DNA from: Solirubrobacterales bacterium
GTDB lineage: Bacteria; Actinomycetota; Thermoleophilia; Solirubrobacterales; JACPNS01
DNA length: 64,000 nt
NCBI GenBank assembly: GCA_051306435.1
Contig: JBPPNF010000052.1
Location: 4,906-68,905 of the forward strand
Direction: 5' to 3'
Shown here: one piece after another, positions 20,568 through 61,120 of the stretch
Position numbering within the stretch: position 1 is the stretch's first letter
How the letters are laid out: each line of letters begins with the position of its first letter
Translations under genes and position numbers: made by a program
Notes under the pieces: model-generated
Database searches by the model: none
Seen by the model: the letters and a program-made list of their open reading frames with translations, nothing else
Told to the model about the DNA's origin: nothing

Positions 20568-20579
20568 GAGAATTGCCCA

Positions 20580-21077: not shown

Positions 21078-21114
21078 ACGAGCGCAATTGGAGGGAGCCC
21101 CCTATACGATGTGA

Positions 21115-28852: not shown

Positions 28853-28864
28853 CTTGGGCGGGAA

Positions 28865-30004: not shown

Positions 30005-30025
30005 GAGCGCGGGGATTATCGCGGG

Positions 30026-31114: not shown

Positions 31115-31160
31115 CGGGGGATTATCGCTTGGCGGGCGGGCGGCCGGTACGCTCGCGGCC

Positions 31161-32084: not shown

Positions 32085-32228
32085 ACGGCCGACGGTCCCT
32101 CGGCATCGCCTGGGCGATCGGCGGCCACATCTTCATCCCGGCCATGCTGATGCTGCTCGCGACCGGGAGCAGTCAGGCCGTCGTGAGTGACCTGCGCAGG
32201 CAGGCCACCTGACTGCTGAAGTCAGCGC

Positions 32229-35200
32229 CTACTTGAAGAACTTGCTGCCGGCCGGCGCAACGTAGTTGTACCGGTAGGCCGTGCCGTCCACGTTCGTGAT
32301 CTCGAACGTGAAAGTCACATTCTTCTTCTGGCACTTCTTCAGGGCAGCCTTGTACTTCTTCGCAGCCTTGTACTTCTTCCTGGTGACAGCAGCGCAGAAG
32401 GTCTTGTAGGACGGCAGCAGGGCGCTCATCTTGGTGTTTATCGAGAGGCTGCGGGCGTTTGCCGGGAAGGTCCTGGCGAACTTCAGGCCGTTGCTTCCGG
32501 AAACCCGGAAGTCCTTCGCGGTGAGCTTGGTCGAGCCAACCCTGCCGGTCAGGTTCTTCAAGTTCTTCTTGTAGGTCTTGGCCAGCTTCTTGTTCTTCGT
32601 CTTCTTCCACTTGATCAGCTTCTTGTTGATCTTCGTGCCCTTCGGGTACGTGACTCGGGCCGACTTGATCGCCTGGCAGTTGGCTGCCGTGGTCAGCGAC
32701 AGCGAGGTGCTGACCTTCTTGTTGCCCCTCTTCTTGGCACCCTTGGTCGAGACCCTGACGACCGGGTTGACACAGGTGTTGACGATTTTCTGGCAGAAGG
32801 CCGTGATGCCGGTGACCGGGCTGTTCTGGCTGACCGACTGTCCGGAGTGGCTGGAGAACGACGAGGCGGCCGAACCGCACTTGCCGTCAGAGCGCAGACC
32901 GAGGATGCCCTTCGGGCCACCCGTGAGGTTCATCGTCAGGTCGCTCCAGATCAGATCCGGCAGGTTCGTGAAGGCGCTCTGGATCTGGCTGGCTCCGCTC
33001 CCGGAGATGAAGCTGTTGGCGCCGCGGATCCGCATGTCGATCGGGGCCGGAATGTCCAACAGGAGGTCCGGCAACGACTGACCAGAGACGCTCTTGGCCA
33101 TGTAGACCGTTCCGGTCACCGGCGTGGTGAGCAGCGGCGTGTCGACCGAGACCGTTCCGATCTTCGAGCTTGCCGGGCAGGCACGCGCGTTGACGAGATC
33201 CACCGGGCAGGCGTCTGCGATTCCCGCGACGTTCACGGTCATGACCGACGGCAGGACCACGGTCGTCGACTTCAGCGTCGAGTCGCCGTTTTCGGTGTGC
33301 ATCTTGATCGTCCATGACGGTGCGATGCGGTCGTCACCGGCGCTGGTCGCCGCGAAGGCGATCGAGGGGCTGAACATGCGCGACGGGCAACCGGTTGCCT
33401 GGTAGCCGTCGCTGTCCGAAGCCGGCGCGCCGTTGTACGGCGTCAGCGTCGTCACGACGCTGAACGGCGAGCAGTCGGATGCGTTGTAGAGGAACGGCTT
33501 CTGCGTTGCCTGTGCGATACCCGGAAGCGAGATGTCCAAGTTCTGGATGTGCGTCGGGACGCCCTTGAACATCTTCGGCACGTCGACGAAGTTCGCGGTG
33601 ATCCCGTGGTCGGTCGGGCGGATCTGGATACGACCCTGGGTGATGTAGTCGCCGAGGTCGTACGGACCGGCCTTCGCGGGCACCTTGATCGACATGCCGG
33701 CGATGTCGCCGCCCACGCCCTCGGTCAGGTAGACCTTTCCGGGCATCGTCAGCGTCTGGCCGTACTGACCGATCTTGGCGATCACGTCGCCGACCTTGCT
33801 GATGTCGGTACAGGTACCAGCCGCTGCATTGGTCAGCGGGCAGAGCGGCACCGCAGCGGCGCTACCGAGGAAGCCGGCCGGGAGCTGCATGCTGACGTTC
33901 CTGATGTCTTCCTGCGCGTCACCACGCGAAATCGTGAACTCAGCGTTCGGGTGACCGCCGGACGTCAGCGGGCTGATGTCCGAGGTCGAGGTCGGCGTGA
34001 AGGTCTTCGCAACCGCCGCATCGATCGGAAGCGTCGAGCTGCGGATCACGTTGGCGGTGCCGGAGTGCGGCGTCATGTCGGCGGCGGCCTCGACCGTGCT
34101 GGCAGAACCGACGACGCCCTCCGGGTTGAGCAGCAGCGGGAAGTAGGTTGTCGTCGATGCGACAACCTTCTTGTAACCGGTCAGCTCGACGCGGAAGTCG
34201 GTGAACGGGATGTCCGGCAGGCCCGCGAAGCGGGTCGTGATCTCGCCGGTCGTCTCGTTGACGCGGGCGATTCCGCGGATCGTGATCAGGGTCTTGCCCG
34301 AGAGCTGGATAGTCAACTTGTAGCGGTCTGATCCGTCGCTTGCCGTACCCGGAGTCTCCAGGTAGACCGCGCCCCAGAGGGAGTGCGAGCCTGGGCCGTC
34401 CGGGCTGGTCTGGTCCTTCGGCAGCAGCGACGTGTCGATCCAGGCCGTACCGACGCGCGAGGCCTCCGGGCAGGTCTGGGAGTCGAGCTGCGCCGCCGAG
34501 CAGGCTGCGAGGCCGTTGGCGGCCGGCGCTGAGAGGCGGAAGCCCGGAAGTGCGAGCTCGAGTTCCTTCAGCGTCGCCTGCGTGGCGAGGCTCTCGTCCT
34601 GGTGGATCAGCACGTGCAGGCCCGTCGGGTGCTCGGCGCCGTGGCCGACTTCCGGCGCGACCGCCTGGTTCTCGATCGTCACCGTGTTGGCGTTGAGGTT
34701 GAGGTTCTCGCAGCCGGTGAACTTGTACTCCAGTTGTGAGTCCGCGTTCTTCGTCGTCGGGTTGCTGTCGTCCTTGTCGAAGACCGAGGTGACCACGGCG
34801 CGGATGTGCAGATAGTCGCCGCATGAGCGCGGGTTGCTCATGAAGATCTTCTCGTCGGGCGTGCCCTCGTTGGCCTTGCCGACAAGCGTGATCTGCATCT
34901 GGCTGATGCGCACCGGGATGCCTTCGAAGACCTGCGGCATGTCGCCGGTCTCCGCGAAGAGGCTGTAGTCGTTGCTGTCGAGGTTGACGTCGACCGGGAC
35001 GATCACCTTGCCGAAGGCGAACGGTCCGACGCTGACGTCAGCGATGAAGGTGAACTTGGCCGGGCGGTTGCTCGGCGCGACGGTGTTGTAGAGGCCACCG
35101 CTGATCTCGTAGGTGTCGGACGAGTCGCCGATCTTCAGCGTGACCGTGCCGATCTGGCTGCCCGGTTCAGTCGATCCGCAGTTGCCGGCATCGGCGTCTG

Positions 35201-38200
35201 CCTGGAGGCAGGTCGGCGCGGCGTCAGCGGAGCCGACAAGGCCCGGCGGCAGCAGGATCTTCACGCGCTTGATCGACTTGTCGGAGTTCGGACGGTTGAC
35301 CGTCATCGTGACCGGCTTGCTTGCGCCGGCGACGTACTCGGACTCTGCGCCGGTACCGATCTGGCTCGACAGATAGCCGGACTGGTCGGCGGACTCCGTC
35401 TGACTGCAGTTGGCGACAACGTCGGTCGTCGTGAAGTCAGTGTGTGCATTGATCGAGTCGGTCGGACGCGCCCACGGGGACATGTCTGCATTGATGCGGA
35501 ACGTGCCACAGGTGTTCGGGTTGGTGAGCAGTGCGTGCTCGCCAGCGCCGGTCGTCTTGAAGCTCAGCGTCAGGTTGCTGAACTGCAGGTCCGGCAGGTT
35601 GTCGAACGTGGCGATGACCTGGCCGTCGCCGGTGTTGACTGCTCCGGTGCCGCCGGTAGGGACGTCAGACGAGCCGTCAACGGTGACGCTGCCAGCCGTG
35701 TAGAGGTCGCCCGAGCCGGGCAGGTCCACGAAGAGACCGAGGCGGTAACGCGTTGAAGCCTGGTTGCCGACTGGCGGCAAGAGGTAGAGCGCGCCGGTCT
35801 GCGTGGTCGGCAGCAGCGGCGTGTCGAGCGCGACCTCGCCGAGCCTTGAGCTCGACGGGCAGCCTGATCCGCCGGCCTCCACCGTTGCATCGGCGCAGGT
35901 CATGCCGGCGCCGTAGTTGCCCACACCCGGGTTGATGCTCATGCCCTCGGGGAAGGCCGTGACGATCTTCTTGGTCGAGGACGAGTTGCCGCTGAACTGG
36001 AAGCCGAGGTCGAGTCCGACCGGCTTGCCGCGTTGCGTCGTGGACAGTGACGCGGTGATCGCCGGGTTGTACGGCGCGTTGGCGCAGTTCACGGTCGTGA
36101 AGTCGCCGCCGGGCGAGCCGACGGTGACCGCATTGCCGAGCGTCGAAACCATCGTCGCCGAAAGCGTGTGGCTGGTGCACTGCGACGGGTTGATCATGAA
36201 CGGCTTGTCGTCGGCGGTGTTGCCCGGCGTGCCCTGGTCGGCCATGCCGTCGAGCTGGATCTGCAGCTGGCGGACACGGACCGGGACACCCTCGTAGTAC
36301 CTCGGCAGCACGGTGTGCGCGTCGATCGAGAGGTCGCTCGCCTGGGCGCCGGTGACAATCTGAGTCGTGACCGGGAGGCTGAGCTTGCCGAGGTCGTACG
36401 GGCCGACAGTGACGGGAATGACGACCGCCAGGCGCGCAGGCTCGGACGCATCCGGGATCACGTTGTAGAGCGTGCCGTTCATCGTCAGGGTGTCCGTCCC
36501 GGCACCGATCTGCGTGGTGACCGTTCCGACGGCGCTGTCCGCGGCACACGTGCCGGCGATGGCGTCGGCCTGCGAGCAGCGGGGCGTCAGGACCGTGTTG
36601 GCCACGAGACCCGGCGGGAGGTGCAGGTCGAAGTCGCGGATCTGCTGCGTGTAGTCGCTGCGGCCCACTGTGATCGTGACTTCCGGGTTGGCCGCAGCAT
36701 CGAGCGTGCTGAAGCTCGCACCGAAGCTCGGGTTGAACGGTTCAGAGGCCTGCGATCCGCTGCCGCCGTAGACGGTGTTGAAGGTGCCGTCGGCCGTGAT
36801 CGTCGATCCGCCGGACTGCGGGGTGATCTCAGCGGACACCGTCTGCGTACCTTCGGTTTCGGCGTTGGTGAACAGCGCCTGCGGGCCGCCGTTGAAGGCG
36901 ATCTTCAGCTGGGTGAAGCCGAGGTCCGGAATCGACGGGAAGGTCGCGACGACGCGGCCGGTCGGGCTGCCGCCGTCGGTTGCTCCGAGCCCGCCGGCGA
37001 TGTCCGACGAGCCGTTCACCGCAGCGCTGCCGCGGACGATCAGTTTGGTGCCGGGCAGGTCCACGACCAGCGCCAGCTTGTAGCGGGTTGCGGCAGTGCT
37101 GCCCGGAGTCTCCAGGTAGACGTAGCCGGTCTTTGTTCCGGGCAGGAGCGGCGTGATCAGCTCGACGCTGCCGATACGGCTGCCGAGCGGACAGGCGTCG
37201 GCGTTGCTGTCGATCTGGCTCGTCGAGCAGGCGTCGAGGCCGCCGTTGGCGTTGGCCACTGCCGGGTTCAAGGTCATGCCCAGCGGCATCGTCGTGACGA
37301 CGCTGCCGACGTTCGGGTTGCTGGCCGACGAGTCGATCTGCAGCGTCATGCCCGTCGGGACGGCCGTGGTGCCGGCCGTGCCGGAGATCGTCAGCGTCGG
37401 GTCCGGCGAGAAGTCAACCGGGCAACCCGTGACCGGGTAGTTCACGCTGCGCGCGGCGGTGCTGCCGGTCAGCGGCACGAGGTCTGCACGCAGCGGGTTG
37501 GTCGATCCGACGGCGTCACACTTGCTCGGGTTCTTGATGAAGCCCTTGTCGTCTGCGCCCGGGCCGTTGCCCTGATCGACGATGCCCTTCAGCGTTATCG
37601 ACATTTCGGCGAGGCGCACGTTGATGCCCTCGTACCTGGTCGGAATCAACGTCGTGGCGTCCACGCCGTAGTCACTGCTGCGCAGGCTCGTCGGGACCGG
37701 GATCGTCAGCTTGCCGAGGTCGTACGGACCAACCAGAACCGGGACGATCACAGCCATACGGGCCGGCTCGTCGGAGTTCGGAGTGACGTTGTGGATCGTG
37801 CCCGGCAGGTCCATCGTCTCGGCACCGGTTCCCAGCTTGGTGACGACGGATCCGACCTGGCTTGCGGCGGTGCAGGTCGCGGCTGCGGCCTGGGCCTGCG
37901 AGCAGGTGGTGTTGGTCGCCGTGGTGTCAGCGACGAGGCCGACCGGCAGCTTCAGGTTGAAGTTGCGCAGGTACTCGTTCTTGGCGCCGGCCGTGACCGC
38001 GAGGGTCAGGTCGGTGTTGGCGCCGCTGACCGTGCTGGCGGGCGTTGCGGTGAAGGTCGGGTTGAACGGCTTGCTCGCCGAGCAGCCCAGCGTATTGCTG
38101 AGGCTGAACGTGGAGTTGACGAGCGCGTCCGCCCCACCGGAGCTCGGCGTGATCGTCGAGTTGGTGGTCTGCGTGCCGCAGGTGTCGGGGTTGGTCAGCA

Positions 38201-41200: not shown

Positions 41201-44200
41201 GAACGCGGCCTGTCGTGGCGCTGCCCGTCGGGACGTTGACGCCCAGGGTCAGGGCTGTCGGATTGCCGGCAGCGGTCGGGCTGACCGATGCGCTGAGCGT
41301 CGGGTCGTAGGCCGGGACGCTCGAGGAGCATCCGGTGGTCGTGAAGCTGGAGCTGTTGTTGGCGCCCGAAGAGTCGACGCTGTTGTCCCCGGCGGTGAAG
41401 TCGGCGCTGATCGTGTTGCTCTGGCACTTGCTCGGGTTGGTCATGTAGTCGTTGCCGTTGACCGTGCCGTTCAGGGTCATGGCGAGCGTGCGCAGGCGCA
41501 CTGCGATGCCCTCATAGCGCTGCGGCAGCGTCACCGCGGCGTCAATTCCGTAGTCGGCACGGATGCTCGACGTGACCGGGATCGTCAGGTTGCCGAGGTC
41601 GAACGGACCGACGACAACCGGCACGATCGCCGCGAAGCGGACGGGCTCGTCGGCGTTGGGCGTGACCTGGAAGATCTTGCCGCCGGCGAGCGAGTAGGTC
41701 GCGGTGCCGGATCCGAAGCTCGTGTTGAAGGTTCCGACCTGTGAGCCTGCGGCGGTCGTCTCGCATGATCCCGCCACGGCACTTGCCTGCGAGCAGTTGC
41801 TGGCGACGGCCGTCGTGTTGGCGACGAGGCCGGTCGGCAGGTGGATCGCCATTGACTTCAGCGTCTTGTGCTTGTCGCTGCGAGAGACGTTCAGCGTGAG
41901 GTTCGGGTGGCCGGCCGGCGTGGGGTTGCTGACCGAAGCCGTGAACGACGGATCGAACGGGAACGTTCCGCAGCCGCTCAGCGGGTAGGACGGCGAGCTG
42001 CTGCTGGTCGCACCTGTGTCGGAGTTCGGCGTGAAGGTCGCGCCGAAGCTGTTCGCGCAGGTCTCGGGGTTCACGACCAACGCGTTCGGGCCGCTGTTGA
42101 AGGCCATCGAGAGGCTGGTGAAGCCGAGGTCCGGGATGTTGTCGAAGTCGGCACTGATCTGGCCGGTGCCCGAATCGACCGCGCCGGTGCCGGCGGTCGG
42201 GATCGTGGTCGAGCCGTTGATGCTGATTGCGCCACGCAGGATCAGCTTCTGACCCGGCAGGTCGATGACCATCGCGACCCGGTAGCGCGTGGTTGAAGTG
42301 GTGCCCGGCGACTCGAGGTAGAGCTTGCCGGTGGGGTTTGTGTTCAGCAGCGGCGTGACCATCGTGATGTTCGCGAGCTGCGAGCTTCCGGCGCAGCCTG
42401 CACCGCCGGCGTTGATCGTCGCCGTGGCGCACGCGGTCAGTCCAGTACCGAACGCCGGGTTGATCTCCATGCCGCTCGGGAACGTGATCTGCACCCGCTT
42501 CATCGTCGGGTTGGTTGCCGCCGAGTTGATCGTGAAGGTCAGGCCCGCGGGATCTGCCGGGACGGACGACGACGTTGCGACAGCAAGAGTCGGCGCGGTG
42601 CCAAAGCCTGCGCATCCACCGGTCGTGAAGTTGAAGGAGCTGGCGACGGTCGCCGGTGAGGCACCGTCAGAGACCATCGACGCGGTGACCGCGTTGCTCT
42701 GGCACTTGCTCGGGTTGATCATGAAGGGGTTGCCGTTGGCGGTGCTGGCCAGCTGCAGCTGCAACGAACGGATGTGCACGGCGATGCCCTCGTAGCGCGT
42801 CGGCAGCTGGGCGGTGGCGTCGACGCCAAGGTCTGTGCGCAGCGTGGTCGAGATCGGGATGCTGAGCTTTCCGAGGTCGAACGGTCCGACGACCACAGGC
42901 AGAACTACAGCAAATCGCGCGGGCTCGGCCGCGTTGGCCTGGACGTTGTACATCGATCCGCCGAGCGGGAAGGTTGATGCGCCAGATCCGATCGTGGTCG
43001 AAACCGATCCGATGATCTGGTTGGCGGCGCAGTTGCCGGCCGCAGCGGTCGCCTGTGAGCAGAGCGTGGTCGCGCTGGTCGCAGCGACAAGGCCGGTCGG
43101 CAGGCCGACGGTGATGTTGCGCAGGTCGCGGTTGTTGTCCGGGCGGACGAAGTTCAGCGTCAAGTTCGGGTTGCCCGCCGAAGTCGTCGGCGAGACGTTG
43201 CCGTTGAAGGTCGGAGCGAATGCCAGCGGGTCGCTGCAGTTGGTGTCGGGGGTGTAGCCGTCGGTCACGGTGCGCGCTGCGCCTGTGCCGTTCGGTGTCC
43301 ACAGCGCGCTGAAGGTCGAGAGCGTGCAGCTCTGAGGGTTGACGAACAGTGCCTGACCGCCGCTGTTGAAGGCGACGCGCATGTTCGTGAAGCCGAGATC
43401 CGGGATGCCCGGGAAGTCGGCGACGATCTGTCCGGTGCCCGAATCGACCGCGCCGGTTCCGCCGGTCGGGATCGTGCTCGAGCCGTTGACGGTGATCGCG
43501 CCGTGCAGGATCAGATCCTTGCTCGGCAGCTTGACGACGATCGCGGCCTTGTAGCGGGTGGTGCCCGTGGTGCCCGGCTGCTCGAGATAGACGGCGCCGG
43601 TCTGCGGCGCTGAGAGCAGCGGCGTGGTCAGGGTGACCGTGCCCAGGCGCGAGCCATTGCCGTCGCAGGTCGTCTGACCCGGGGTCGTGGCGAGGTTTGC
43701 GGCGCTGCAGTAGTTCAGGCCTGTGCCGACGGCCGGGTTCAGTTCGAATCCGGTCGGGAAGGTCAGTCTGATCGCCTTGGTCGTCGGGTTCATGAGCGTG
43801 CTGCCCAGGTCGAACGTGAGCCCGACCGGCTGCCCGGCCTCGGTTGTCGACGGAGTGACGGCGAGCGTCGGATCGGTCGCGTACGGACGGTTGCAGCCGG
43901 TGAAGGTTGCTGGCGTGGTGCGCGCGACGGTCACCGGCTCCGGCGAGATGATGTCGGCACCGATCGATCCGGCGAGGCACTCGCTCGGGTTGATCATGAA
44001 CGGCTGGCCGCTGACAGTTCCGTTGAGGGTCAGGTTGATCGAGCGCACACGCACGTCAACGCCCTCGTACCTGGTCGGCAGCTGCGAGAAGGTGTCGACA
44101 CCGTAGGCGCGGGTCGGGTCGGCGACGCCGTCGTTGAGCGCCGTCGAGATGTCAACCGGCAGGTTGCCGAGGTTGAACGGTCCGACGAGTACCGGGATCA

Positions 44201-47200
44201 GCGCGGCGAGGTGCGCCGGCTCGTTCGCGCCCGGTACGACGTTGTAGACGGTGCCGCTCAGCGAGAACTGCTCGGCGTTCGCGCCGATACCGGTTGTGAT
44301 CGATCCGACGGCGCTGCTCGGCGTGGTCGTGCCACAGGTGCCGGCCGCAGCGTCGGCCTGTGAACAGCGGACGACGGCCGTGGTGTTGGCGACAAGGCCG
44401 ACCGGCAACTTCACGTTGAGGTTGCGGATCGTGTTGACCGTACTGCCGCCGTTGTTGACGGCGATGTTGAGGTTCGGGTTGGCACCCGCGACATAGCTGC
44501 TGAGTGTGCCCGAGAATGTCGGGGCGAAGCTCGTGGTGACGCACGGGCTGTTGGTGTCGAAGTTCGAGTTGTTGGTCGTGGCGCTGCTCGGGTTGTTGTA
44601 CGGGTACATCTGCGCCGCGATCGTGTTCGTCGCCGAGCATGTCGTAGGCGTGACCAGCATCGCCTTGCTGCCGGTGGCGAGGTTCACGGTCAGGTTGTTG
44701 AACGAGAGGTCCGGGAGGTTGTCGAAGTCGGCGGTGACCACTCCGGTTCCGGAGTCGACGCTGCCGGTCGCACCGGCCGGGACGGTCGTGTCACCGTTGA
44801 CGCGGACCTTGCCGCGGATCACCAGGCTCTGGCCCGGGAGCGCGATGATCATCGCCAGGCGGAAGCGGGTATCCGGGGATCCGCCGACGTCAGGTGACTC
44901 GAGATAGACGCTTCCGGTAAAGGTTCCCGAGATCAGCGGCGTCGTCATCGACACCGTTCCGACGACCTGCTTGCCGGCCGCTGAGCATGCGTCAGCTCCG
45001 CCTGCGCTGCTGTTGATCGTGGCGGTCGGGCAGGTGAAGCCGGCGGGGTAGTTGCCGACGGCCGGGTTGACCGACATGCCCGCCGGGAAGGTCAGCCTGA
45101 GCTGCTTCAACGTGGCGTTGCCGCTCGAGTTGCTGACGGTGACGTCCAGTCCGACGGGCGACTGCGTTGCCGGTGTCGCCGGGTTGGTCGCGACGGTCGT
45201 GGTCGGCGGCGTTGCGCCGAAGCCGCCGGCGCAGGCGCCGACGGTGAAGTTCTGAGTGCCGGTCGCGGTGCTGGCGAGGTGCGAGGTCATCGTCGCGGTC
45301 GTGGTCTTGCTCGCGCCGCAGTTGCTCGGGTTGGTCATGAAGTTCGCTCCGTTGCCCGGGGCGACGCCGTTGATCAGGACCTGCAGGCTGCGGTAGCGAA
45401 TCTTCACGCCCTCATATCGAGCCGGCAGCGTGACGTTCGCGTTCAGGCCGTACGGGTCCGCGTCGGTTGCAGGTCGCATCGAGAGGGGGACCGGGAGCGA
45501 CAACGAACCGAGGTTGAACGGTCCCAGCACGACCGGGACGATCGCCGTGAACTTGGCGAGCGCGCCGGGCGCGACGGTGTTGTAGAGGTTTCCGGAAAGG
45601 CTCGCGAGACCCGCGCTCGGGGAAGCGACGAGCGCGGAACCGACCGTGGTCACGACCGACCCGATACGCGTGTTCGCCGGGCAGGCAGCTGCGTCGGCCT
45701 GGACCTGTGTACAGGTCGGAACCGCCGCCGGGGCTCCCGTCAGACCAGACGGCAGCGCGAACTGGACAGATCTCAGCTGCTGGCTCTTCTCCGGACGGTT
45801 CACCGTGAGCGTGAGATCCGGGTGCGCGTTCGGCGCGGTGGTCGAAAGTGTCTGGGCGAAGGTCGGGGCCCACGGGTCGGTTCCGGTGGATCCGACTGTG
45901 CCGTTGTAGTTGGTCAGGTAGCTGGCGCTGGAGTTCACCGGGCTGGTCGAGCTCGTCGAGTACGGCAGGAAGCTGGCGTTGAAGGTCTGGGTGCCGATCG
46001 TGTCACTGTTGACGAACATCGCCGTCGGGCTGTTGAAGGCCATCAGCAGCGACGACCACGGGACGTCTGGGAGGTTGTCAAAGACCGCCGTGAGTTGGCC
46101 CGTGCCGGAGTCGATCGCGCCGGTGCTGCCGCTGACTCCGCCTGTCGTGGAGCCGTTCAGACCGACCGAACCGCGAACGATGATCCGTCCACCGGGCAGG
46201 CTCAGGTACATCGCGAGGCGGTAACGCGTGGCCGGTGTGGAGCCGGGAGCCTCGAGGTAGACCTGACCCGCGATGGTGGTCGGCAGAAGCGGCGTCGTCA
46301 CCGTGACGTCGGCGATCTTCGTGGCGGCGCCGGTGCAGTTGTTGGTCGCGTTGGTGATGTCTGTGTCGATCGTCGCCGTCGGACACGCAGTCACGGCGGA
46401 TGCAAAACCGGGGTTGATCTCGAGGCCTGCGGGCATCGTGACCGTCGCGCGCCGGATAGTCGACTGCTGCGTGGTCGCGGCGGTCTGGTTCTGGCTCAAG
46501 TTGATGTTCAGGCCGGTGGGCTGCGCGGTGGCGAGCGTCGTCGGCGTGACCGCGAGCGTCGGCGAGAACGGCTGCGGCACCGCCGCGCAGTTGAGGCTCT
46601 GGTCGGTGTCGCTCAGCACGACGGTCGACGTCGAGCCGGTGCCCGGCAGGGCTGGACCGGAGAGGTCGCCGTTGGAGGTCAGGCTGGCCTCGAAGGCAAG
46701 CGGCGAGGCGCAGGTGTTCGAGGGATTCTGCAGGAACGGAGCCGTGCCAGCCATCCCGTTCAGCGTCAGCGAGATGCTGCGGTAGCCGATCGGGATGCCG
46801 TTGATCGACTGCGTCAGGTCGGTCGTCGCAACAAGCCGGAAGGTCGAAGCGTTGTCAAGTCGCAGGATCGCATAGCTGATCACGTAGCCGAAGTCGAACG
46901 GTCCGACGACGGCCGGCGTGACGATTGCGAGCTTGGCGGTCTGCGTCGAGTTGTCGGTTGCGACGTTGTAGATCGTGCTGGTCGGCATGACCAGTGTTCC
47001 CGGACCGAGGCCGACGGTGACCGCAGCCGATCCGAGCGCGTTCGCCGGACCACAGGTGCCGAGGCTCGTCTGCGTCAGGCCCGAGCAGATCGGGACCGCG
47101 TTCGCCGATCCGGCGAAGCCGTAGGGCAGCTTGAAGAGCAGCGACTTGAGGTTGTCGGTGCGGTCGGCGCGCGTGACGTTCAGCGTCATGTCCGGGTGCT

Positions 47201-48887
47201 GCCCGGCGTTGACGTTGCTGAGGTTCGCGCTGAAGGTCGGAGCGAAGGCGTCGAACGAGCAGCTGCCGTTGGTGCCGGAGGTGACGCTGAGCGCCTTGTT
47301 CGAAGTCAGGGCGGTCTGGTTGGTCCACGGCGTGAGCGTGACCGAGGCGTCGTAGGCACCACAGACCTGCGGGTTGACGAGCAACTGCTGGTCGTCATTC
47401 GGGTTCGACACCGGGTTGCTCACCGGGGCGCCGAGGTTGTCGAAGCCGACGCCGGTTGACGCGGTGTTGAGGTCGAGCGTGAAGGTGCTGTAGTTGAACT
47501 GCGGCAGTCCCGCGCCCCACGGCGTGACGTTCTGAATCGAGACGGTGACCTGGCCGTTGGCGGGGTTGGTTGTGGCGCGACCCTCGAACTTGACGGCAAG
47601 TCCTGAGCGTGCGGCGTAGAAATAGAGGCGGTAGATTCCGGCGGCTTCGTCGCCGGGCTGCGAGTCCCCGAGATACAGCTTTCCGATCAGATCGCCGGTC
47701 ATTTCCGGCGCTGCGACCGCAACTGTTCCGACATCACTCCCTGCGGGACAGGTCGGGGGGGCGTCGGTGATGCGGAATGTTCCGGTCGGGGCCACCGGCC
47801 TGCGGAACTGGTCCTCGGTGCAACCGGCGCTGCCGAGGCGACCACCGACGGCGGAGTTGATCTTCATGCCGACAGGAAGCGTCATGTCGAGCTGCTTCGT
47901 GTAGGCCGGCTGGTTGACGTTCGTCGTCACCACGGGATTGGTGAGCACCACGCGCAGTCCGACCGGTCTCCCGGCCTGGGTGTTGCTCTGGGTCACTGTG
48001 AAGTTTGATGCGTATGCCGCCATGCCGGTGCAATTCGGCGTCACGCTGGACGATGAGACCTTGAAGTCAGGCGCGGCCGCGATCTCGGAGGCCGGCTTGA
48101 GGTCGACGTCGACGTTGCCGTTCGAGTTGTAGGCGCGGGTGAAGACCCTTGATGTCCAAGCGTCACAGCGGGTGGGGTTGGTCAGGAAGGGCTTCGTGCT
48201 CGGCGCGGGGGCCATGCCGTAGATCGTCTGCGTCAGCGAGACCATACGGATGTCGCCGCCGAGGATCGGGTCAGTGCGCGTAACGTCGTCGATGATGTCA
48301 ATGCGAAGGCCCTGATCATCGGGGCGCAACGTGATCTTCGCTGTGAGGTCGATGTTGACCGTCAGTCCAAGCAGACACCAGGGCGCGTTGCCCTGGAGGT
48401 GGATGCCGAGGTAGGCCGGAACTTCCGGGTTTGCGCTCGGTCGGTTCCGCAGGAGAAACAGGCCGTTGCCGCCGGAGTTGAGGCTGATGTTTCCGCAAAT
48501 CGACAGCGAAGAAGATGCGACCGCCGAGAGGTTGCCGATCTTGCTGGAAGCAGGACAACCGGCGTACGACGGACTTCCGCTTCCAGCCGTCACACCGGTG
48601 TAGTCGACCGTGCAGCGGTTCGCGGCCGCGACGGCATTCGGGTCGCCGATCTCGCCGGCGGGCAGGTCGATGACCAGGCGCTGCGGGTCGTCGTTGTTGG
48701 GCGTGGTGAAGGAGATCGCCTGGTTGATGTTTGAGTGCGCGCCCGGGACGTTTGAGGTGGGGTATGTCGCGTTCAGCGACGTAGAGACGTCAGCGTTGGC
48801 TGTATTCGCGAACAGCGCAACCGAAAAAAGACACGCCGCGACCAGGGCAGTCAGCGTGAGAAGAGAGATTCGCGACGTCCTCGACAC
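32229..48887 (-). CDS. Giant secreted repeat protein (about 5550 aa, 12 units of about 440 aa, Lys-rich C-terminus)
   Basis: Uninterrupted ORF; signal peptide ending ANTANA; recurring GxVYLExPG and GP(F/Y)(D/N)LG modules every ~1.3 kb; start GTG 48887 inferred. Confidence 0.9.
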   Translation of the reverse strand: MSRTSRISLLTLTALVAACLFSVALFANTANADVSTSLNATYPTSNVPGAHSNINQAISFTTPNNDDPQRLVIDLPAGEIGDPNAVAAANRCTVDYTGVTAGSGSPSYAGCPASSKIGNLSAVASSSLSICGNISLNSGGNGLFLLRNRPSANPEVPAYLGIHLQGNAPWCLLGLTVNIDLTAKITLRPDDQGLRIDIIDDVTRTDPILGGDIRMVSLTQTIYGMAPAPSTKPFLTNPTRCDAWTSRVFTRAYNSNGNVDVDLKPASEIAAAPDFKVSSSSVTPNCTGMAAYASNFTVTQSNTQAGRPVGLRVVLTNPVVTTNVNQPAYTKQLDMTLPVGMKINSAVGGRLGSAGCTEDQFRRPVAPTGTFRITDAPPTCPAGSDVGTVAVAAPEMTGDLIGKLYLGDSQPGDEAAGIYRLYFYAARSGLAVKFEGRATTNPANGQVTVSIQNVTPWGAGLPQFNYSTFTLDLNTASTGVGFDNLGAPVSNPVSNPNDDQQLLVNPQVCGAYDASVTLTPWTNQTALTSNKALSVTSGTNGSCSFDAFAPTFSANLSNVNAGQHPDMTLNVTRADRTDNLKSLLFKLPYGFAGSANAVPICSGLTQTSLGTCGPANALGSAAVTVGLGPGTLVMPTSTIYNVATDNSTQTAKLAIVTPAVVGPFDFGYVISYAILRLDNASTFRLVATTDLTQSINGIPIGYRSISLTLNGMAGTAPFLQNPSNTCASPLAFEASLTSNGDLSGPALPGTGSTSTVVLSDTDQSLNCAAVPQPFSPTLAVTPTTLATAQPTGLNINLSQNQTAATTQQSTIRRATVTMPAGLEINPGFASAVTACPTATIDTDITNATNNCTGAATKIADVTVTTPLLPTTIAGQVYLEAPGSTPATRYRLAMYLSLPGGRIIVRGSVGLNGSTTGGVSGSTGAIDSGTGQLTAVFDNLPDVPWSSLLMAFNSPTAMFVNSDTIGTQTFNASFLPYSTSSTSPVNSSASYLTNYNGTVGSTGTDPWAPTFAQTLSTTAPNAHPDLTLTVNRPEKSQQLRSVQFALPSGLTGAPAAVPTCTQVQADAAACPANTRIGSVVTTVGSALVASPSAGLASLSGNLYNTVAPGALAKFTAIVPVVLGPFNLGSLSLPVPLSMRPATDADPYGLNANVTLPARYEGVKIRYRSLQVLINGVAPGNGANFMTNPSNCGASKTTTATMTSHLASTATGTQNFTVGACAGGFGATPPTTTVATNPATPATQSPVGLDVTVSNSSGNATLKQLRLTFPAGMSVNPAVGNYPAGFTCPTATINSSAGGADACSAAGKQVVGTVSMTTPLISGTFTGSVYLESPDVGGSPDTRFRLAMIIALPGQSLVIRGKVRVNGDTTVPAGATGSVDSGTGVVTADFDNLPDLSFNNLTVNLATGSKAMLVTPTTCSATNTIAAQMYPYNNPSSATTNNSNFDTNSPCVTTSFAPTFSGTLSSYVAGANPNLNIAVNNGGSTVNTIRNLNVKLPVGLVANTTAVVRCSQADAAAGTCGTTTPSSAVGSITTGIGANAEQFSLSGTVYNVVPGANEPAHLAALIPVLVGPFNLGNLPVDISTALNDGVADPTRAYGVDTFSQLPTRYEGVDVRVRSINLTLNGTVSGQPFMINPSECLAGSIGADIISPEPVTVARTTPATFTGCNRPYATDPTLAVTPSTTEAGQPVGLTFDLGSTLMNPTTKAIRLTFPTGFELNPAVGTGLNYCSAANLATTPGQTTCDGNGSRLGTVTLTTPLLSAPQTGAVYLEQPGTTGTTRYKAAIVVKLPSKDLILHGAITVNGSSTIPTGGTGAVDSGTGQIVADFPGIPDLGFTNMRVAFNSGGQALFVNPQSCTLSTFSALWTPNGTGAARTVTDGYTPDTNCSDPLAFAPTFNGNVSPTTSAGNPNLTLNFVRPDNNRDLRNITVGLPTGLVAATSATTLCSQATAAAGNCAANQIIGSVSTTIGSGASTFPLGGSMYNVQANAAEPARFAVVLPVVVGPFDLGKLSIPISTTLRTDLGVDATAQLPTRYEGIAVHIRSLQLQLASTANGNPFMINPSKCQSNAVTASMVSDGASPATVASSFNFTTGGCAGFGTAPTLAVATSSSVPADPAGLTFTINSAATNPTMKRVQITFPSGMEINPAFGTGLTACATATINAGGAGCAGSSQLANITMVTPLLNTNPTGKLYLESPGTTSTTRYRVAMVIDLPGQKLILRGAISINGSTTIPTAGTGAVDSGTGQISADFDNIPDLGFTSLSMAFNSGPNALVVNPETCANSFGATFTPNSDTGATSSSSPSYPLSGCGTFPFDPSFTASVSNPTPAGHPNLTLNVSRSDKHKTLKSMAIHLPTGLVANTTAVASNCSQASAVAGSCETTAAGSQVGTFNTSFGSGTATYSLAGGKIFQVTPNADEPVRFAAIVPVVVGPFDLGNLTIPVTSSIRADYGIDAAVTLPQRYEGIAVRLRTLAMTLNGTVNGNDYMTNPSKCQSNTISADFTAGDNSVDSSGANNSSSFTTTGCSSSVPAYDPTLSASVSPTAAGNPTALTLGVNVPTGSATTGRVQIAFPAGMELNPAVGNGLVACSTIDTDASSSNPCKLTSSNLAAVTLTTPLLPGTQTGEIYLETPGTTAATRYKLALVIHLPGRDLVIHGGTLVNGSTTIAGGGLGSTDPSGTATGQITADFPGIPDLGFTALQIAFNSANMLFVNPKTAATFTVNGTLTPNSVATTRTANATFTTSGGTTAVTGFNPTFSAALAPSTSASNPNLTLNVGNPLGMQELKSFDIKLPVGLVANTTGVPRCSQANADAGNCAAGNLVGTVTTTLGSSDTVAEDYTVTGSIYNVIPNADQPARLQAVVPVMVGPFDLGKLSVPVPTTLNSDLTVTASASLPSRFEGIAVRVRAMQMAIQGMPNGNRFMVAPSKCGSSNIEATMISDTSNSSTLTSAINVTGCPTNFATSPAFAVTPDTFTRTAPVNLAFQITSAANNPTIGRVQVAMPLGMEINPGFANNLTACSSVSIDAGGSTCPASSQIGSVSLKTQLLDPTTSYTGKVYLETPGNTASTRYKIAMVVDLPGAKLVVHGKVSIDGSSTIPTGGTGAVDSGTGQIIADFDTIPDLGFTDLNMAFSSANPMLVNPQTCSSNTFTTTMTPSSGGTNAAPTAAYTTTPAGCSDSFSPNFSVSVDGSSSTAASGHPDLNFHVDRPNGTNALNQRYLRELNLDLPVGLVAATTATTHCSQADAAAGNCSSDNLVGVFDAFIGNGTADANNLELAGQIYNVTPNASEPARLAAITDVQVGPYNLGKLMIPIGTQLNPDLSVSTTTTIPRRYEGIAVRIRKLDVSLMGIAPSTGKPFVSVPSRCQNNTVTADMISDTGSAATRTSSFTTTGCPRNFTAAPTVDVTSTPSDTTVPTGLGVTIGSDPQNSTISRFQLALPDDMSINANAGNGLATCSTALINAGGSGCPASSNQGTVTLNTPLLGAAQTGSVYLEDPGATGATRYKLAIVVHLPGTDMILRGKVLVNGSSDITAGLGATDTGTGRITTDFDTIPDLQFTQMVINFNTGNRALLTNPDTCGTQTTNSTITPSSGGADALVNSTFSLSNTLGCSASKPFNPTFTATPASTVSGANTDLTLAVTAGAKNEYLRNFNLKLPVGLVADTTATNTTCSQAQAAAATCTAASQVGSVVTKLGTGAETMDLPGTIHNVTPNSDEPARMAVIVPVLVGPYDLGKLTIPVPTSLRSSDYGVDATTLIPTRYEGINVRLAEMSITLKGIVDQGNGPGADDKGFIKNPSKCDAVGSTNPLRADLVPLTGSTAARSVNYPVTGCPVDFSPDPTLTISGTAGTTAVPTGMTLQIDSSASNPNVGSVVTTMPLGMTLNPAVANANGGLDACSTSQIDSNADACPLGSRIGSVELITPLLPGTKTGYVYLETPGSTAATRYKLALVVDLPGTKLIVRGSAAVNGSSDIAGGLGATDGGSPTGRVVATFPSIPDLGFTQLKIAFNGGPQALFTNAETEGTQTVSAEITPQSGGSTITADGTFNTVYGGSGSQASEPFNPSFGASFSTLDAAANPEVTITVGRSDYTQQIRDFDLHLPPGLVANTVLTPRCSQADAIAGTCAADSAVGTVTTQIGAGTDTLTMNGTLYNVIPDASEPARLAVVIPVTVGPYDLGKLSLPVTTQIVTGAQASDLSIDAHTVLPRYYEGVPVRVRQLQIQLDGMADQGTPGNTADDKPFMINPSQCTSHTLSATMVSTLGNAVTVGSPGGDFTTVNCANAPYNPAITASLSTTQRGKPVGLDLGFQFSGNSSSTKKIVTAFPEGMSINPGVGNYGAGMTCADATVEAGGSGCPSSSRLGEVALDTPLLPTTQTGALYLLPPVGNQASTRYRLGLFVDLPGSGDLYTAGSVTVDGSSDVPTGGTGAVNTGDGQVIATFDNLPDLQFSNLTLSFKTTGAGEHALLTNPNTCGTFRINADMSPWARPTDSINAHTDFTTTDVVANCSQTESADQSGYLSSQIGTGAESEYVAGASKPVTMTVNRPNSDKSIKRVKILLPPGLVGSADAAPTCLQADADAGNCGSTEPGSQIGTVTLKIGDSSDTYEISGGLYNTVAPSNRPAKFTFIADVSVGPFAFGKVIVPVDVNLDSNDYSLFAETGDMPQVFEGIPVRISQMQITLVGKANEGTPDEKIFMSNPRSCGDYLHIRAVVTSVFDKDDSNPTTKNADSQLEYKFTGCENLNLNANTVTIENQAVAPEVGHGAEHPTGLHVLIHQDESLATQATLKELELALPGFRLSAPAANGLAACSAAQLDSQTCPEASRVGTAWIDTSLLPKDQTSPDGPGSHSLWGAVYLETPGTASDGSDRYKLTIQLSGKTLITIRGIARVNETTGEITTRFAGLPDIPFTDFRVELTGYKKVVASTTTYFPLLLNPEGVVGSASTVEAAADMTPHSGTANVIRSSTLPIDAAVAKTFTPTSTSDISPLTSGGHPNAEFTISRGDAQEDIRNVSMQLPAGFLGSAAAVPLCPLTNAAAGTCTDISKVGDVIAKIGQYGQTLTMPGKVYLTEGVGGDIAGMSIKVPAKAGPYDLGDYITQGRIQIRPTDHGITANFVDVPKMFKGVPTHIQNLDISLPGIAQATQKPFLYNASDCSPFSVVTTLTPYNGAPASDSDGYQATGCPSRMFSPSIAFAATSAGDDRIAPSWTIKMHTENGDSTLKSTTVVLPSVMTVNVAGIADACPVDLVNARACPASSKIGTVSVDTPLLTTPVTGTVYMAKSVSGQSLPDLLLDIPAPIDMRIRGANSFISGSGASQIQSAFTNLPDLIWSDLTMNLTGGPKGILGLRSDGKCGSAASSFSSHSGQSVSQNSPVTGITAFCQKIVNTCVNPVVRVSTKGAKKRGNKKVSTSLSLTTAANCQAIKSARVTYPKGTKINKKLIKWKKTKNKKLAKTYKKNLKNLTGRVGSTKLTAKDFRVSGSNGLKFARTFPANARSLSINTKMSALLPSYKTFCAAVTRKKYKAAKKYKAALKKCQKKNVTFTFEITNVDGTAYRYNYVAPAGSKFFK

Positions 48888-49204
48888 GTTCTCATAAACA
48901 TCTGCCTCAGCTGATCGATTCGGTTGAACCGTCTCAAGACAGCCCTGGGAGCCACTCTGGCTCCGTGCACGCTCGCACATTCCCTGCATCCCCTTGTATT
49001 TATCCTCGTAATCCCCGGTCCGTCAGGCGGACCCATCCGCCACTAACCTGGCGGCAATCTGTACAGCAGCCTTTTGTCGGCAAATCGGCCCTGACCCTTG
49101 AGTAAGAAACGATCTGGTACGCGGCATAAACCCCGCGCAAGAGCGTCGATTCGGTGTCTGCTGCGGCCCCCCGCCCTGGTGGCCGAATGTTCTACTCGAG
49201 CGAC

Positions 49205-50993: not shown

Positions 50994-51041
50994 CGCCGAC
51001 ACGGTACCCACCATCTCCCCAAACACCACCCCCAACCCGCC

Positions 51042-51148
51042 TCGCATGCTCCCGGCATGCAACGGAAGTTCGTTCAAATCCACCCCATGTCCAAGCGGTT
51101 TCTCTTGCATGCCTCAGGCATGCAGCGTTGCATGGCAGAGGCATGCAG
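51042..51148. repeat. Type 1 palindromes downstream of the RAYT
   Basis: Units at 51042, 51105 (63-bp spacing) and 51128. Confidence 0.85.
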
Positions 51149-57834: not shown

Positions 57835-57844
57835 GCCGGGCGGA

Positions 57845-59104: not shown

Positions 59105-59158
59105 ATCAATTCAGCGCTGCCGCGCATCAGGCGCGGGGCAGCGGGAGATGCCTGGAGT

Positions 59159-61072: not shown

Positions 61073-61120
61073 GGGAATGAGTCTACGGGGGGTCGGTCGG
61101 GATTTCCCGGCGGTGCACCC

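Follow-up and report, generated by a model that had tools for sequence, protein, structure and literature searches.

A giant protein of paired beta-sandwich modules with a basic C-terminal domain, predicted to be secreted, encoded in a glycan locus of a Solirubrobacterales bacterium

Background

What is the product of a reading frame of ~16.7 kb that lies among the glycan genes of a Solirubrobacterales bacterium, and what might it do at the cell surface? The frame is found in a stretch of 64,000 nucleotides of contig JBPPNF010000052.1 (assembly GCA_051306435.1), the whole of which was analyzed and is called the window below; all coordinates are window positions. Thermoleophilia, the class to which this bacterium belongs, are abundant in soils and groundwater, and a literature search found nothing on their cell surface. 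An original prediction, made from the DNA alone, had placed a single long secreted repeat protein at 32229..48887, and one intact minus-strand reading frame indeed occupies that interval. We read its product as a half-megadalton protein of 24 large beta-sandwich domains followed by a very basic tail, with secretion predicted. The function that we tentatively prefer is that of a Sec-exported, disulfide-stabilized surface fiber, associated with the wall and held there by the polycationic tail; we regard this as quite possible, short of calling it probable.

Results and Discussion

The giant gene, its start and its export signal

From its first ATG the intact reading frame spans 32229..48989 on the minus strand and encodes 5,586 aa. 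The GTG at 48887, the upper coordinate given in the original prediction, is in frame and corresponds to residue 35 in ATG numbering. DNA upstream of the giant gene was also considered in placing the start. A motif homologous to (V/M)(T/S)RTSRIALL lies at most six residues from the start in four of the six giant orthologues whose termini were inspected; the other two, P0002 and P0003, start farther upstream than the motif. Because of these orthologous N-termini the coding sequence is taken as 32229..48887, which is likely its true extent. The principal features of the gene are as follows.

32229..48887, minus strand: giant coding sequence, 5,552 aa plus stop, GTG start (open reading frame list and translation)
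48792..48887, minus strand: predicted Sec-type signal peptide, aa 35-66 in ATG numbering, 32 aa (read from the sequence)
47247..48794, minus strand: unit 1, aa 66-581, a degenerate A+B pair with insertions at the N-terminal end
32793..47246, minus strand: units 2-12, each an A+B pair of ~215-aa modules, with boundaries at 45873, 44529, 43224, 41958, 40650, 39375, 38067, 36738, 35370, 34002 and 32793
32232..32792, minus strand: C-terminal basic domain, candidate wall anchor, aa 5400-5586, 187 aa

The ratio of non-synonymous to synonymous substitution rates (dN/dS) relative to the orthologue in locus L001 ranges from 0.13 to 0.47, in every unit and over the full length, and the gene is read as intact and under selection.

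The signal peptide that had been predicted is recognizable in a basic n-region, ~21 hydrophobic residues and a following A-N-A. A hydropathy scan of the whole protein found this to be the sole sustained hydrophobic stretch; apart from it, two single windows pass the threshold, at aa 2026 and 2452. A lipobox-like string, V-A-A-C, sits within the hydrophobic stretch of the signal peptide.

The N-terminus could thus be imagined to remain in the membrane, either as a lipoprotein at the V-A-A-C cysteine or as an uncleaved signal anchor, and the basic C-terminus would then be the distal binding tip. Such a reversed polarity draws on the [LV]-A-A-C string inside the hydrophobic stretch, present in five of six giant orthologue N-termini inspected, and on the length of that stretch. 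However, all six of these orthologues also keep an AxA-type site, 12-14 residues past the lipobox-like cysteine, and the two-unit relatives inspected retain AxA sites while the cysteine is missing. The residues after the lipobox-like cysteine are, moreover, hydrophobic, which is unusual for mature lipoproteins. We consider the reversed arrangement very improbable and return to the preferred reading, a fiber held by its C-terminal tail.

Twelve units of two homologous modules

We define a "unit" as one A module together with one B module. The 12 alternations of two modules in the original prediction were recovered as 12 units of 403-516 aa that can be aligned over their full length, with 24-49% identity to unit 6 and 22-53% identity among repeats. 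Motifs recur at the claimed period; the giant protein contains 12 copies of LPxG[LFM], 11 of GP[FY]xLG, 10 of [VIL]YL[EL], 12 of [IL]PD[LIV] and 10 of T[PQS]LL. The proposed period of ~1.3 kb is also apparent in the DNA, where repeat families of 60-85% identity are spaced by 1,263-1,389 nt or multiples of that distance. Tandem Repeats Finder does not see this period because its maximum period is 500 nt; it reported only an 18-nt repeat present twice within the tail (32344-32379). The first copy, described beforehand as degenerate, has 25% identity to unit 6 and the lowest identity of any unit to its L001 orthologous unit (0.65). Units 11 and 12 are likewise divergent.

The two modules had been said to resemble each other through an older duplication. 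An hhalign comparison of module A with module B gave a probability of 98.7% and an E value of 1.4e-16 over 197 columns. The modules are homologous, and the older internal duplication is therefore real. The body that they form is acidic (pI 4.83), with an abundance of Thr, Ser, Ala and Gly. N-x-S/T sequons number 81, whereas shuffled sequences contain 69 ± 7, no clear enrichment.

The giant protein contains 97 cysteines. In an alignment of 89 units, C55 and C65 are invariant and four further cysteine positions are at least 90% conserved. The conservation noted in the original prediction extends across the family: among 745 near-complete units from 298 proteins, the share of Cys is 99% or more at each of six profile positions (54, 64, 176, 204, 266 and 278) and 83% at a seventh. 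We infer three to four disulfides per unit because the cysteine positions are conserved. No conserved lysine suited to isopeptide bonds was found among the invariant or ≥ 90% columns, in the 12 units or in the 89 units.

The beta-rich character predicted for the protein is borne out by an AF2 model of unit 6 (pLDDT 92.3, pTM 0.88), which consists of two all-beta domains made almost entirely of strands. When the model was compared with the PDB by Foldseek, 95 matches were obtained at E ≤ 1e-3. Tandem beta-sandwiches of surface proteins lead the list, namely integrin alpha legs, a cohesin dyad, PrgB, AgI/II, Ace, Cnm and ClfA/B, the best bacterial matches being 3l8q, 8beg, 4ofq, 5dza, 2z1p, 8jl8, 2vr3 and 3asw. 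With TM scores of ~0.2 and 6-10% identity these are matches to generic tandem beta-sandwiches only, and no well-characterized adhesin domain emerged from them. ESM Atlas searches with unit and tail led only to unnamed Actinomycetota clusters; the nearest named families were CARDB (0.80) and DUF11 (0.83), both below lead level. Complex prediction with two copies of one unit gave scores of 0.01, 0.46 and 0.01 (mark 0.42), which speak neither for self-association nor against it.

A large family of Thermoleophilia

Searches of Pfam-A 2025 and NCBIfam 20.0 with both halves of the giant protein found no family at E ≤ 0.1, and the unit profile matched no PDB sequence at E ≤ 10, in keeping with the original view of the protein as uncharacterized. 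The same profile retrieved 6,481 cluster representatives (50% identity clusters). All relatives with a named taxon are Thermoleophilia, and all those with a product name are called "hypothetical" or carry a generic automatic label. The (A+B) family is large, belongs to one actinobacterial class of soil and water, and has no model in Pfam or NCBIfam.

Most relatives are ~1,000 aa long and carry two units in the same layout as the giant. Among the best 150 representatives, 114 fall between 800 and 1,150 aa; the N-terminus is hydrophobic in 102 of these. Pfam gave no match in 11 of 14 mostly shorter relatives (647-1,514 aa), nor in 8 of 10 giant relatives. A CusF label on two giant relatives was rejected, as it reflects a marginal internal Pfam match in which no stretch passes alone.

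Related loci were sought with a 6-unit alignment as query, which reaches close relatives only. The giant orthologues found carry 10, 14, 14 and at least 16 units. Units 1-3 of the window correspond to units 1-3 of L001, and window units 4-12 to L001 units 6-14. In a tree of 89 units, all 11 of the window units included cluster with units from other genomes, 10 of them at support values of 0.885 or higher. As judged from these correspondences, none of the 12 units is a copy that could be exchanged for another; every unit has an orthologue of its own, and the differences between related genomes are of entire internal units.

The glycan locus

The position inside a glycan cluster claimed for the gene was confirmed by glycan genes on both sides. 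Upstream of the giant gene are:

49205..50275, minus strand: glycerol-1-phosphate-dehydrogenase-like gene (Fe-ADH_2, Pfam), directly upstream of the giant gene
50268..51110, minus strand: NTP_transf_3 nucleotidyl(cytidylyl)transferase-like gene (Pfam/NCBIfam)
52047..52949, plus strand: CDP-alcohol phosphotransferase-like gene (NCBIfam only, E 1e-12, transferase half of NF041135)
52872-54407, minus strand: Wzx-type flippase (Pfam)
54404-55951, minus strand: Wzy_C-domain membrane protein (Pfam)
55948..63619, minus strand: five genes, for FlgD_ig/DMFA2_C, LytR_C, PglF/PseB-like 4,6-dehydratase, DUF354 and DegT/PseC-like aminotransferase (Pfam/NCBIfam)

The glycan genes on the downstream side together span 28271..32084 on mixed strands (Pfam/NCBIfam):

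31161-32084, plus strand: GT2, convergent with the giant gene
30026-31192, minus strand: GT4
28865-30004, minus strand: GT2
28271-28852, minus strand: initiating polyprenyl-phosphate sugar transferase

The Fe-ADH_2 gene scores 224 bits against NCBIfam NF002022, below the cut-off of 413, and the CDP-alcohol phosphotransferase-like gene has no Pfam match at 1e-3. The Wzy_C protein may act as polymerase, ligase or O-oligosaccharyltransferase. PDB sequence searches with the Wzy_C and FlgD_ig neighbors returned nothing informative. A weak HfsF-like match was also seen in the neighboring locus. The surrounding genes appear to make a glycan that bears glycerol phosphate.

Gene order around the giant recurs in its orthologues. 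Upstream DNA of 700 nt or more is present in six loci, and in five of these the glycerol-1-phosphate-dehydrogenase-like gene lies directly upstream (L003, L005, L009, L010 and L012), and a nucleotidyltransferase lies upstream of it in four (L003, L005, L010 and L012). The Wzy_C and Wzx pair is also found upstream of the giant in L003, and the convergent GT2 follows it in two of the five loci with downstream DNA (L006 and L008). This shared order may in part reflect ancestry, the genomes with giant orthologues being fairly close relatives. The two-unit paralogues of L015 sit in a non-glycan context, so the link with glycan genes is limited to the giant orthologue group; for the thousands of two-unit members, genomic context was seen in a few loci only. 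The neighboring enzymes may glycosylate the giant protein, a suggestion drawn from the conserved gene order only.

Such surroundings raise the prospect of an S-layer-like envelope glycoprotein, a self-assembled wall coat that might include the whole family with its ~1,000-aa two-unit forms and be O-glycosylated by the Wzy_C-type enzyme of the locus. Its appeal lies in the acidic body rich in Thr, Ser, Ala and Gly, in a very large family with one common layout, and in a gene placed within a locus for a flippase, a Wzy_C protein, an initiating transferase and glycosyltransferases whose upstream order recurs in relatives. There is also a precedent in the available portion of PMC2943079: the S-layer genes sgsE and sgtA of Geobacillus are found near slg clusters, and WsaB and WsfB are predicted O-oligosaccharyltransferases with Wzy_C. 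Compared with SgsE and SgtA, the giant protein likewise has an acidic body rich in hydroxy amino acids and a gene beside a glycan locus with a Wzy_C protein, but it is ~5 times larger, variable in repeat number, Cys-rich and devoid of SLH. The locus differs as well, with Wzx/Wzy-type genes where the slg clusters, in the same portion of PMC2943079, use an ABC transporter.

Several observations weigh against a lattice. The range of 10 to at least 16 units among orthologues fits an adjustable stalk better than a lattice subunit, N-x-S/T sequons are without clear enrichment, and Pfam at E ≤ 0.1 detects neither SLH, CWB2 and similar modules nor any other known S-layer anchor. To our knowledge, 97 cysteines would be atypical for an S-layer protein, and our literature search found no report of an S-layer in Thermoleophilia. 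We regard the S-layer interpretation as unlikely, and continue with the fiber associated with the wall through its tail.

The basic C-terminal domain

The 187-aa lysine-rich tail was overlooked in the original prediction. It has a pI of 10.7 (10.72), 20% Lys, 47 Lys and Arg residues against three Asp and Glu, and four conserved cysteines, and all 19 giants and relatives in the alignment retain it. A strongly positive C-terminal end is widespread in the family: in 226 relatives of 800-1,300 aa, the last 120 aa have a median net charge of +17, and the value is at least +10 in 84% of them. An AF2 model of the tail, built from an alignment of only six sequences, has an overall pLDDT of 62.5, with values of 72-90 only over the basic domain itself; with this low-confidence model Foldseek matched only generic pilin and MSCRAMM sandwiches. 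The last 60 aa of the giant protein are hydrophilic. The tail is a folded, conserved polycationic domain, and we propose it as a candidate new non-covalent wall anchor, the anchoring role being deduced from charge, position and conservation only.

Two other ideas about the tail were set aside. As a portable wall-binding module it would occur on unrelated proteins, and all 10 matches in a search among longer proteins were orthologue fragments. As a degenerate module it has a mere hint in its favor, an hhalign probability of 13.7% against B (31 columns, at the start of B) and 1% against A.

An extremely basic tail might equally serve away from the wall. In a released matrix or biofilm scaffold it would bind extracellular DNA, acidic exopolysaccharide or mineral while the stalk cross-links the matrix. 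A signal peptide in the absence of a covalent or membrane anchor would suit release, and the locus could as well make an exopolysaccharide, given its Wzx, Wzy_C, EPS-type initiating transferase and weak HfsF-like match. The tail, however, is a conserved folded domain with four conserved cysteines and no simple charged tract, and a conserved fold of this kind suggests a specific ligand. The LCP-associated LytR_C protein of the locus, too, points to a polymer that is linked to the wall, not free. We think release quite unlikely and keep to the wall-associated fiber.

Comparison with known surface proteins

Fibrillar adhesins are defined, in the available text of PMC8286594, by tandem stalk domains, one or more adhesive domains and attachment to the cell surface; the same text states that a known anchor is missing from almost half of fibrillar-adhesin-like proteins. 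The giant protein resembles the Gram-positive representatives (MSCRAMM, AgI/II and Rib-type) in its Sec signal, its very long monomeric chain of tandem beta-sandwiches, its divergent N-terminal end and a C-terminus fit for attachment. A tandem stalk is present in the form of 24 homologous beta-sandwich modules, presumably elongated. No adhesive domain was found in Pfam or NCBIfam at E ≤ 0.1, and the N-terminal unit is a divergent copy of the repeat; an adhesive surface of a novel type is conceivable. Pfam at E ≤ 0.1 and a motif and hydropathy scan revealed no known anchor either, whether a C-terminal LPXTG-type signal, an SLH, LysM, GW or choline-binding domain, or a transmembrane helix.

The original prediction had seen no RTX, LPXTG or SLH motif, and that holds. 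The protein has no GGxGxD string, no HemolysinCabind match in Pfam and an N-terminal Sec signal instead, while the sole LPxTG-like string, LPGTG, is internal (aa 781) and no sortase sorting signal stands at the C-terminus. Unlike fibrillar adhesins, the giant is built of a new family of ~215-aa domains in alternating A/B pairs, has conserved Cys pairs in place of isopeptide bonds, and lacks both LPXTG and a recognizable adhesive domain. Its repeats, also unlike theirs, are individually orthologous between genomes and not homogenized.

The preferred reading can now be stated step by step. A chain of 24 beta-sandwich domains in 12 A+B pairs would be exported by Sec, the basic domain last. Outside the cell, disulfides would stiffen the domains, in the role of the isopeptide bonds of Gram-positive pilins, and the domains would form a stalk whose length is estimated to be on the order of 100 nm. 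The acidic stalk (pI 4.8) would point outwards, and the basic C-terminal domain would hold non-covalently to an anionic glycopolymer of the wall, for which the glycerol-phosphate-bearing glycan of the locus is a plausible candidate. The N-terminal unit, divergent and faster-evolving, would be the distal end, where interactions take place. The stalk, too, may be glycosylated by the glycan locus. Some Gram-positive surface proteins, for example Lactobacillus S-layer proteins, bind teichoic acids through basic non-covalent wall-binding regions, and the giant shares with them a strongly basic terminus on an otherwise acidic surface protein.

A bolder version would make the giant the protein core of a proteoglycan-like envelope layer. 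The Wzy_C enzyme would add polymerized, glycerol-phosphate-decorated glycan to the Thr/Ser-rich stalk, and the family of (A+B)n proteins with basic tails would be the principal envelope protein system of Thermoleophilia, with a new class of polycationic anchor. We hold this version to be distinctly doubtful.

Giant tandem beta-sandwich surface proteins are already known, so no current concept is overturned. What the analysis exposes is a family of 6,481 representatives with a confident new double-sandwich unit, a family-wide Cys pattern and a shared basic C-terminal end. Its definition would add module A, module B and the basic tail to the known domain families, as two or three new ones, and would provide a candidate new non-covalent wall anchor. 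The giant itself would be a natural case of a very long stalk whose repeats differ from one another, are each conserved, and are stabilized by disulfides rather than isopeptides.

The best Foldseek match to the unit, 8t2v_A, is an integrin alpha leg (E 1e-6, probability 1.00, TMq 0.22). This likeness is one of fold class only, with 6-10% identity, no sequence relation and different domains of life; like the giant, the thigh, calf-1 and calf-2 domains are large beta-sandwiches in tandem, and in integrins they form a rigid leg.

The giant gene and its start codon

A single unbroken ORF on the minus strand, 32229..48989, encodes 5,586 aa from its first ATG; position 48887, where the original prediction ended the gene, is an in-frame GTG, residue 35 counted from that ATG. 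We consider 32229..48887 (5,552 aa) the likely CDS because four of six N-termini of giant orthologues start no more than 6 residues from the homologous (V/M)(T/S)RTSRIALL motif (two start farther upstream), and because about 320 nt of non-coding DNA separates the GTG from the preceding gene. The predicted signal peptide is present: a basic n-region is followed by about 21 hydrophobic residues and A-N-A, which, judged by eye, reads as a Gram-positive Sec signal. Outside this signal, only two windows, each isolated, passed the threshold of a hydropathy scan (aa 2026 and 2452). The body of the protein has a pI of 4.83, and Thr, Ala, Gly and Ser make up 42.8% of it. Over the giant gene (32001-48000) the plus strand has negative AT skew and positive GC skew throughout, 0.05 in the first 2-kb bin and then 0.10-0.16, with GC skew in the flanks of about 0.00-0.06. 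The skew probably reflects the Thr/Ala/Gly/Ser-rich coding strand, not a replication signal.

Repeat units, fold and disulfides

The recurring motifs and the period of about 1.3 kb in the original prediction were confirmed by motif counts (LPxG[LFM], 12; GP[FY]xLG, 11; [VIL]YL[EL], 10; [IL]PD[LIV], 12) and by 12 units of 403-516 aa that align over their full length. Identity to unit 6 is 24-49%, and the columns invariant among the 12 units include L40, P41, G43, C55 and C65. Repeat families at the DNA level are spaced by 1,263-1,389 nt or multiples, with identity of only 60-85%. The two modules of a unit, A and B, are homologous (hhalign probability 98.7%, E 1.4e-16, 197 columns), and the older internal duplication that had been suspected is therefore real.

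AlphaFold2 modelled unit 6 from 89 aligned units: the window supplied 11, and the other 78 were cut from related loci by coordinates. The model (mean pLDDT 92.3, pTM 0.88) agrees with the expected beta-rich architecture: unit 6 is predicted to form two large beta-sandwiches. Each module has about 11-13 strands, two short helical turns lie at the first Cys pair, and the A-B interface is placed with confidence. A Foldseek search of the PDB returned 95 matches at E<=1e-3, all to tandem beta-sandwich arrays, including integrin alpha legs (8t2v_A, E 1e-6), a cohesin dyad, PrgB Ig domains, AgI/II C-domains, Ace, Cnm and ClfA/B. Because all matches are of this kind, at TM-scores of about 0.2 and identities of 6-10%, the modelled fold class is shared with surface stalk proteins, and none of the solved structures is a close relative.

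The reported conservation of Cys positions holds across the family. Among 745 near-complete units from 298 stored family proteins, conservation is at least 99% at six positions and 83% at a seventh. The conserved residues form sequence-adjacent pairs (profile positions 54/64, 176/204 and 266/278), from which we infer disulfides within units. Pilin-type isopeptide bonds are unlikely, since no Lys is invariant in the 12-unit or 89-unit alignments.

The giant protein differs from MSCRAMMs and pilins because it has neither LPXTG nor isopeptide Lys; as predicted, a motif search found its sole LPxTG-like string to be internal (aa 781) and no GGxGxD repeats, which excludes an RTX adhesin. It would work like a Gram-positive fibrillar adhesin. 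Under the definition of that class in PMC8286594, it has the stalk only: no adhesive domain was recognised with Pfam-A or NCBIfam at E<=0.1, and no known anchor is present. What appears new is a stalk-domain family in which A and B modules alternate, predicted disulfides stand in for isopeptide bonds, and the repeats are old and not homogenised.

Evolution of the repeat array

Units 1-3 of the window correspond to units 1-3 of L001, its closest genomic relative, and units 4-12 to units 6-14 of both L001 and L006, another related locus. Identity between window units and matching L001 units is 64-88%; between units within the window it is only 22-53%. Judged by sequence, units are positionally orthologous between genomes. 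In an 89-unit tree all 11 window units included fall in clades with units of other genomes (support 0.63-1.0; at least 0.885 for 10 of 11), which makes the array an old one that has not been homogenised. A stalk whose length can be tuned would fit the differences in whole units between genomes.

Units per giant protein
L003: 10
Window: 12
L001: 14
L006: 14
L002: at least 16 (open-ended)

Relative to L001, dN/dS ranges from 0.13 to 0.37 across the units and is 0.47 for the C-terminal tail, and amino-acid identity is lowest in the N-terminal unit (0.65). These ratios indicate purifying selection along the whole length of the giant gene, which argues for an expressed and functional gene. In L004 (740-18115) the giant orthologue is broken into three ORFs that overlap and differ in frame, either as a pseudogene or through assembly errors within the long repeat.

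In two loci the giant gene and the Fe-ADH-like gene are separated by a two-unit family member, which lies immediately upstream of the giant gene: L009 (803-4009, plus strand, 1,069 aa) and L014 (289-3138, plus strand, 950 aa). The window has no second family copy of this kind. The L014 pair of ORFs overlaps, possibly through a frameshift or an assembly error.

Family distribution

The Pfam scan proposed in the original prediction left both protein halves without a Pfam-A match, and NCBIfam gave none either (E<=0.1), so the protein belongs to no curated family; the unit profile matched no PDB sequence at E<=10. Searched against 1.84 billion cluster representatives, this profile gave the following numbers of matches.

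Representatives matched by the unit profile
E<=1e-3: 6,481
E<=1e-10: 4,125
E<=1e-30: 2,166

Among the best 150 of the 6,481 representatives, 9 are longer than 3,000 aa and 114 measure 800-1,150 aa; of the latter, 102 have a hydrophobic N-terminus. Relatives of about 1,000 aa among the matches listed have two or three matched stretches each. Where names are given, they are "hypothetical protein" or generic automatic ones (uncharacterized membrane protein, uncharacterized repeat protein, one CusF label); where taxa are given, they are Thermoleophilaceae, Solirubrobacterales, Conexibacter and Baekduia, and in one case Actinobacteria only. Titles of the 15 related genomic loci recovered give Thermoleophilaceae, Solirubrobacterales or merely Actinomycetota/Actinomycetes, and for the nearest giants identity over two units is 82-85%. 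The window thus probably derives from a member of Thermoleophilia. ESM Atlas matches were to unnamed Actinomycetota clusters only. Additional domains are rare in the family: of 14 relatives that are mostly shorter (647-1,514 aa), 11 lack a Pfam match, as do 8 of 10 giants.

Literature searches combining Thermoleophilia with S-layer, or Solirubrobacterales with giant protein, found nothing, a term search of the text of a giant-gene preprint (10.1101/2023.11.21.568195) found no mention of Thermoleophilia or Solirubrobacter, and no published work on the family was found in the literature searched. The concept itself is not surprising; the family exposes a sizeable, real gap in the protein-family coverage of an understudied class.

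Genomic neighbourhood

The giant gene lies among genes for glycan synthesis.

Genes around the giant gene
Upstream, minus: glycerol-1-phosphate-dehydrogenase-like (Fe-ADH-like) gene; NCBIfam NF002022 at 224 bits, under the cut-off of 413
Upstream, minus: cytidylyltransferase-like NTP_transf_3 gene, spanning 49205-51110 with the dehydrogenase-like gene
52047-52949, plus (opposite to the giant gene): CDP-alcohol-phosphotransferase-like gene
Upstream, minus: Wzx gene
Upstream, minus: Wzy_C protein gene
55948-57873, minus: FlgD_ig protein gene (641 aa), FlgD-type Ig domain and DMFA2_C-like region
Upstream, minus: LytR_C protein gene
Upstream, minus: PglF/PseB-like dehydratase gene
Upstream, minus: DUF354 gene
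Upstream, minus: DegT/PseC-like aminotransferase gene
Downstream: convergent GT2, then GT4, GT2 and an initiating sugar-phosphate transferase

The sole PDB sequence match of the FlgD_ig protein is FlgD (7eh9_A, E 7.8e-6). The cytidylyltransferase-like and phosphotransferase-like genes match the two halves of a bifunctional inositol-phosphate cytidylyltransferase/phosphotransferase model in NCBIfam. From family names alone, the dehydrogenase, cytidylyltransferase and phosphotransferase suggest activation and transfer of glycerol phosphate, giving an anionic glycan; the product of the trio could be CDP-activated glycerol phosphate of sn-1 configuration, destined either for a glycan or for a solute.

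The arrangement is found again in related loci. Six of them include 700 nt or more of DNA upstream of the giant gene; in five (L003, L005, L009, L010 and L012; not L004) its immediate upstream neighbour is the dehydrogenase-like gene, and four of the six have the nucleotidyltransferase upstream. L003 has Wzy_C and Wzx there as well. The convergent GT2 follows the giant gene in two of five loci with downstream DNA (L006 and L008), and the other three have a response regulator, a YD-shell fragment and a transposase. The YD-shell (teneurin/Rhs-type) fragment, at 20377-21258 (plus strand) of L001, takes the place of the window's convergent GT2. The two-unit paralogues of L015 have unrelated genes as neighbours.

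A self-assembling, S-layer-like glycoprotein coat is an improbable reading of the giant protein. It draws on a parallel with slg loci, in which, according to PMC2943079, S-layer genes lie near glycan clusters and predicted O-oligosaccharyltransferases carry Wzy_C.

The left part of the window holds ordinary chromosomal genes (L25, Pth, Mfd, enolase, DivIC). A Mutator-family transposase ORF (16925-17938, minus strand) lies beside tRNA-Ala(CGC) at 18345-18420, the only tRNA within the 64-kb window, and an IS200-like Y1 transposase is weakly matched (E 2.9e-4) inside the glycan locus at 51172-51819.

A basic C-terminal tail

The last 187 aa, which the original prediction did not describe, form a conserved, lysine-rich domain with a pI of 10.72 and 47 K+R to 3 D+E. 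All 19 of the giants and relatives examined could be aligned over the last ~185 aa, where four Cys are conserved, and a tail HMM detected the tail in seven of the shorter family members. Basic C-termini are general in the family: in the last 120 aa of 226 stored family proteins (800-1,300 aa), median net charge is +17 and 84% reach at least +10. The family members inspected have neither a transmembrane helix nor a sortase signal at the C-terminus, and the tail is a candidate new basic anchor. An AF2 model from only six aligned sequences has strands and two Lys-rich helices (pLDDT 72-90 over the tail); the module before the tail was modelled poorly from the same number. Foldseek of the tail model gave only generic pilin, MSCRAMM and Als sandwiches, the tail resembles the beginning of module B only weakly (probability 13.7%), and a search for the tail on other proteins gave orthologue fragments only (10 of 10 matches).

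The reading we favour, tentatively, is a Sec-exported, disulfide-clamped stalk held to the wall by its tail. The protein would be exported by Sec and fold outside the cell into 24 disulfide-clamped sandwiches, strung into a stalk with a length of the order of 100 nm; the polycationic C-terminal domain would bind an anionic wall glycopolymer from the surrounding locus and so retain the protein, and the divergent N-terminal unit would be presented outwards. We think it likewise improbable that the tail instead binds DNA or exopolysaccharide in a released matrix scaffold. Very unlikely is an anchor at the N-terminus, by lipid or by the signal itself, which would reverse the polarity; in its favour is a lipobox-like V-A-A-C kept in five of six orthologue N-termini inspected.

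An exact 18-nt tandem duplication in the tail-coding region (32344-32379) repeats KKYKAA, and length differences among orthologues in the tail alignment fall exactly at this point.
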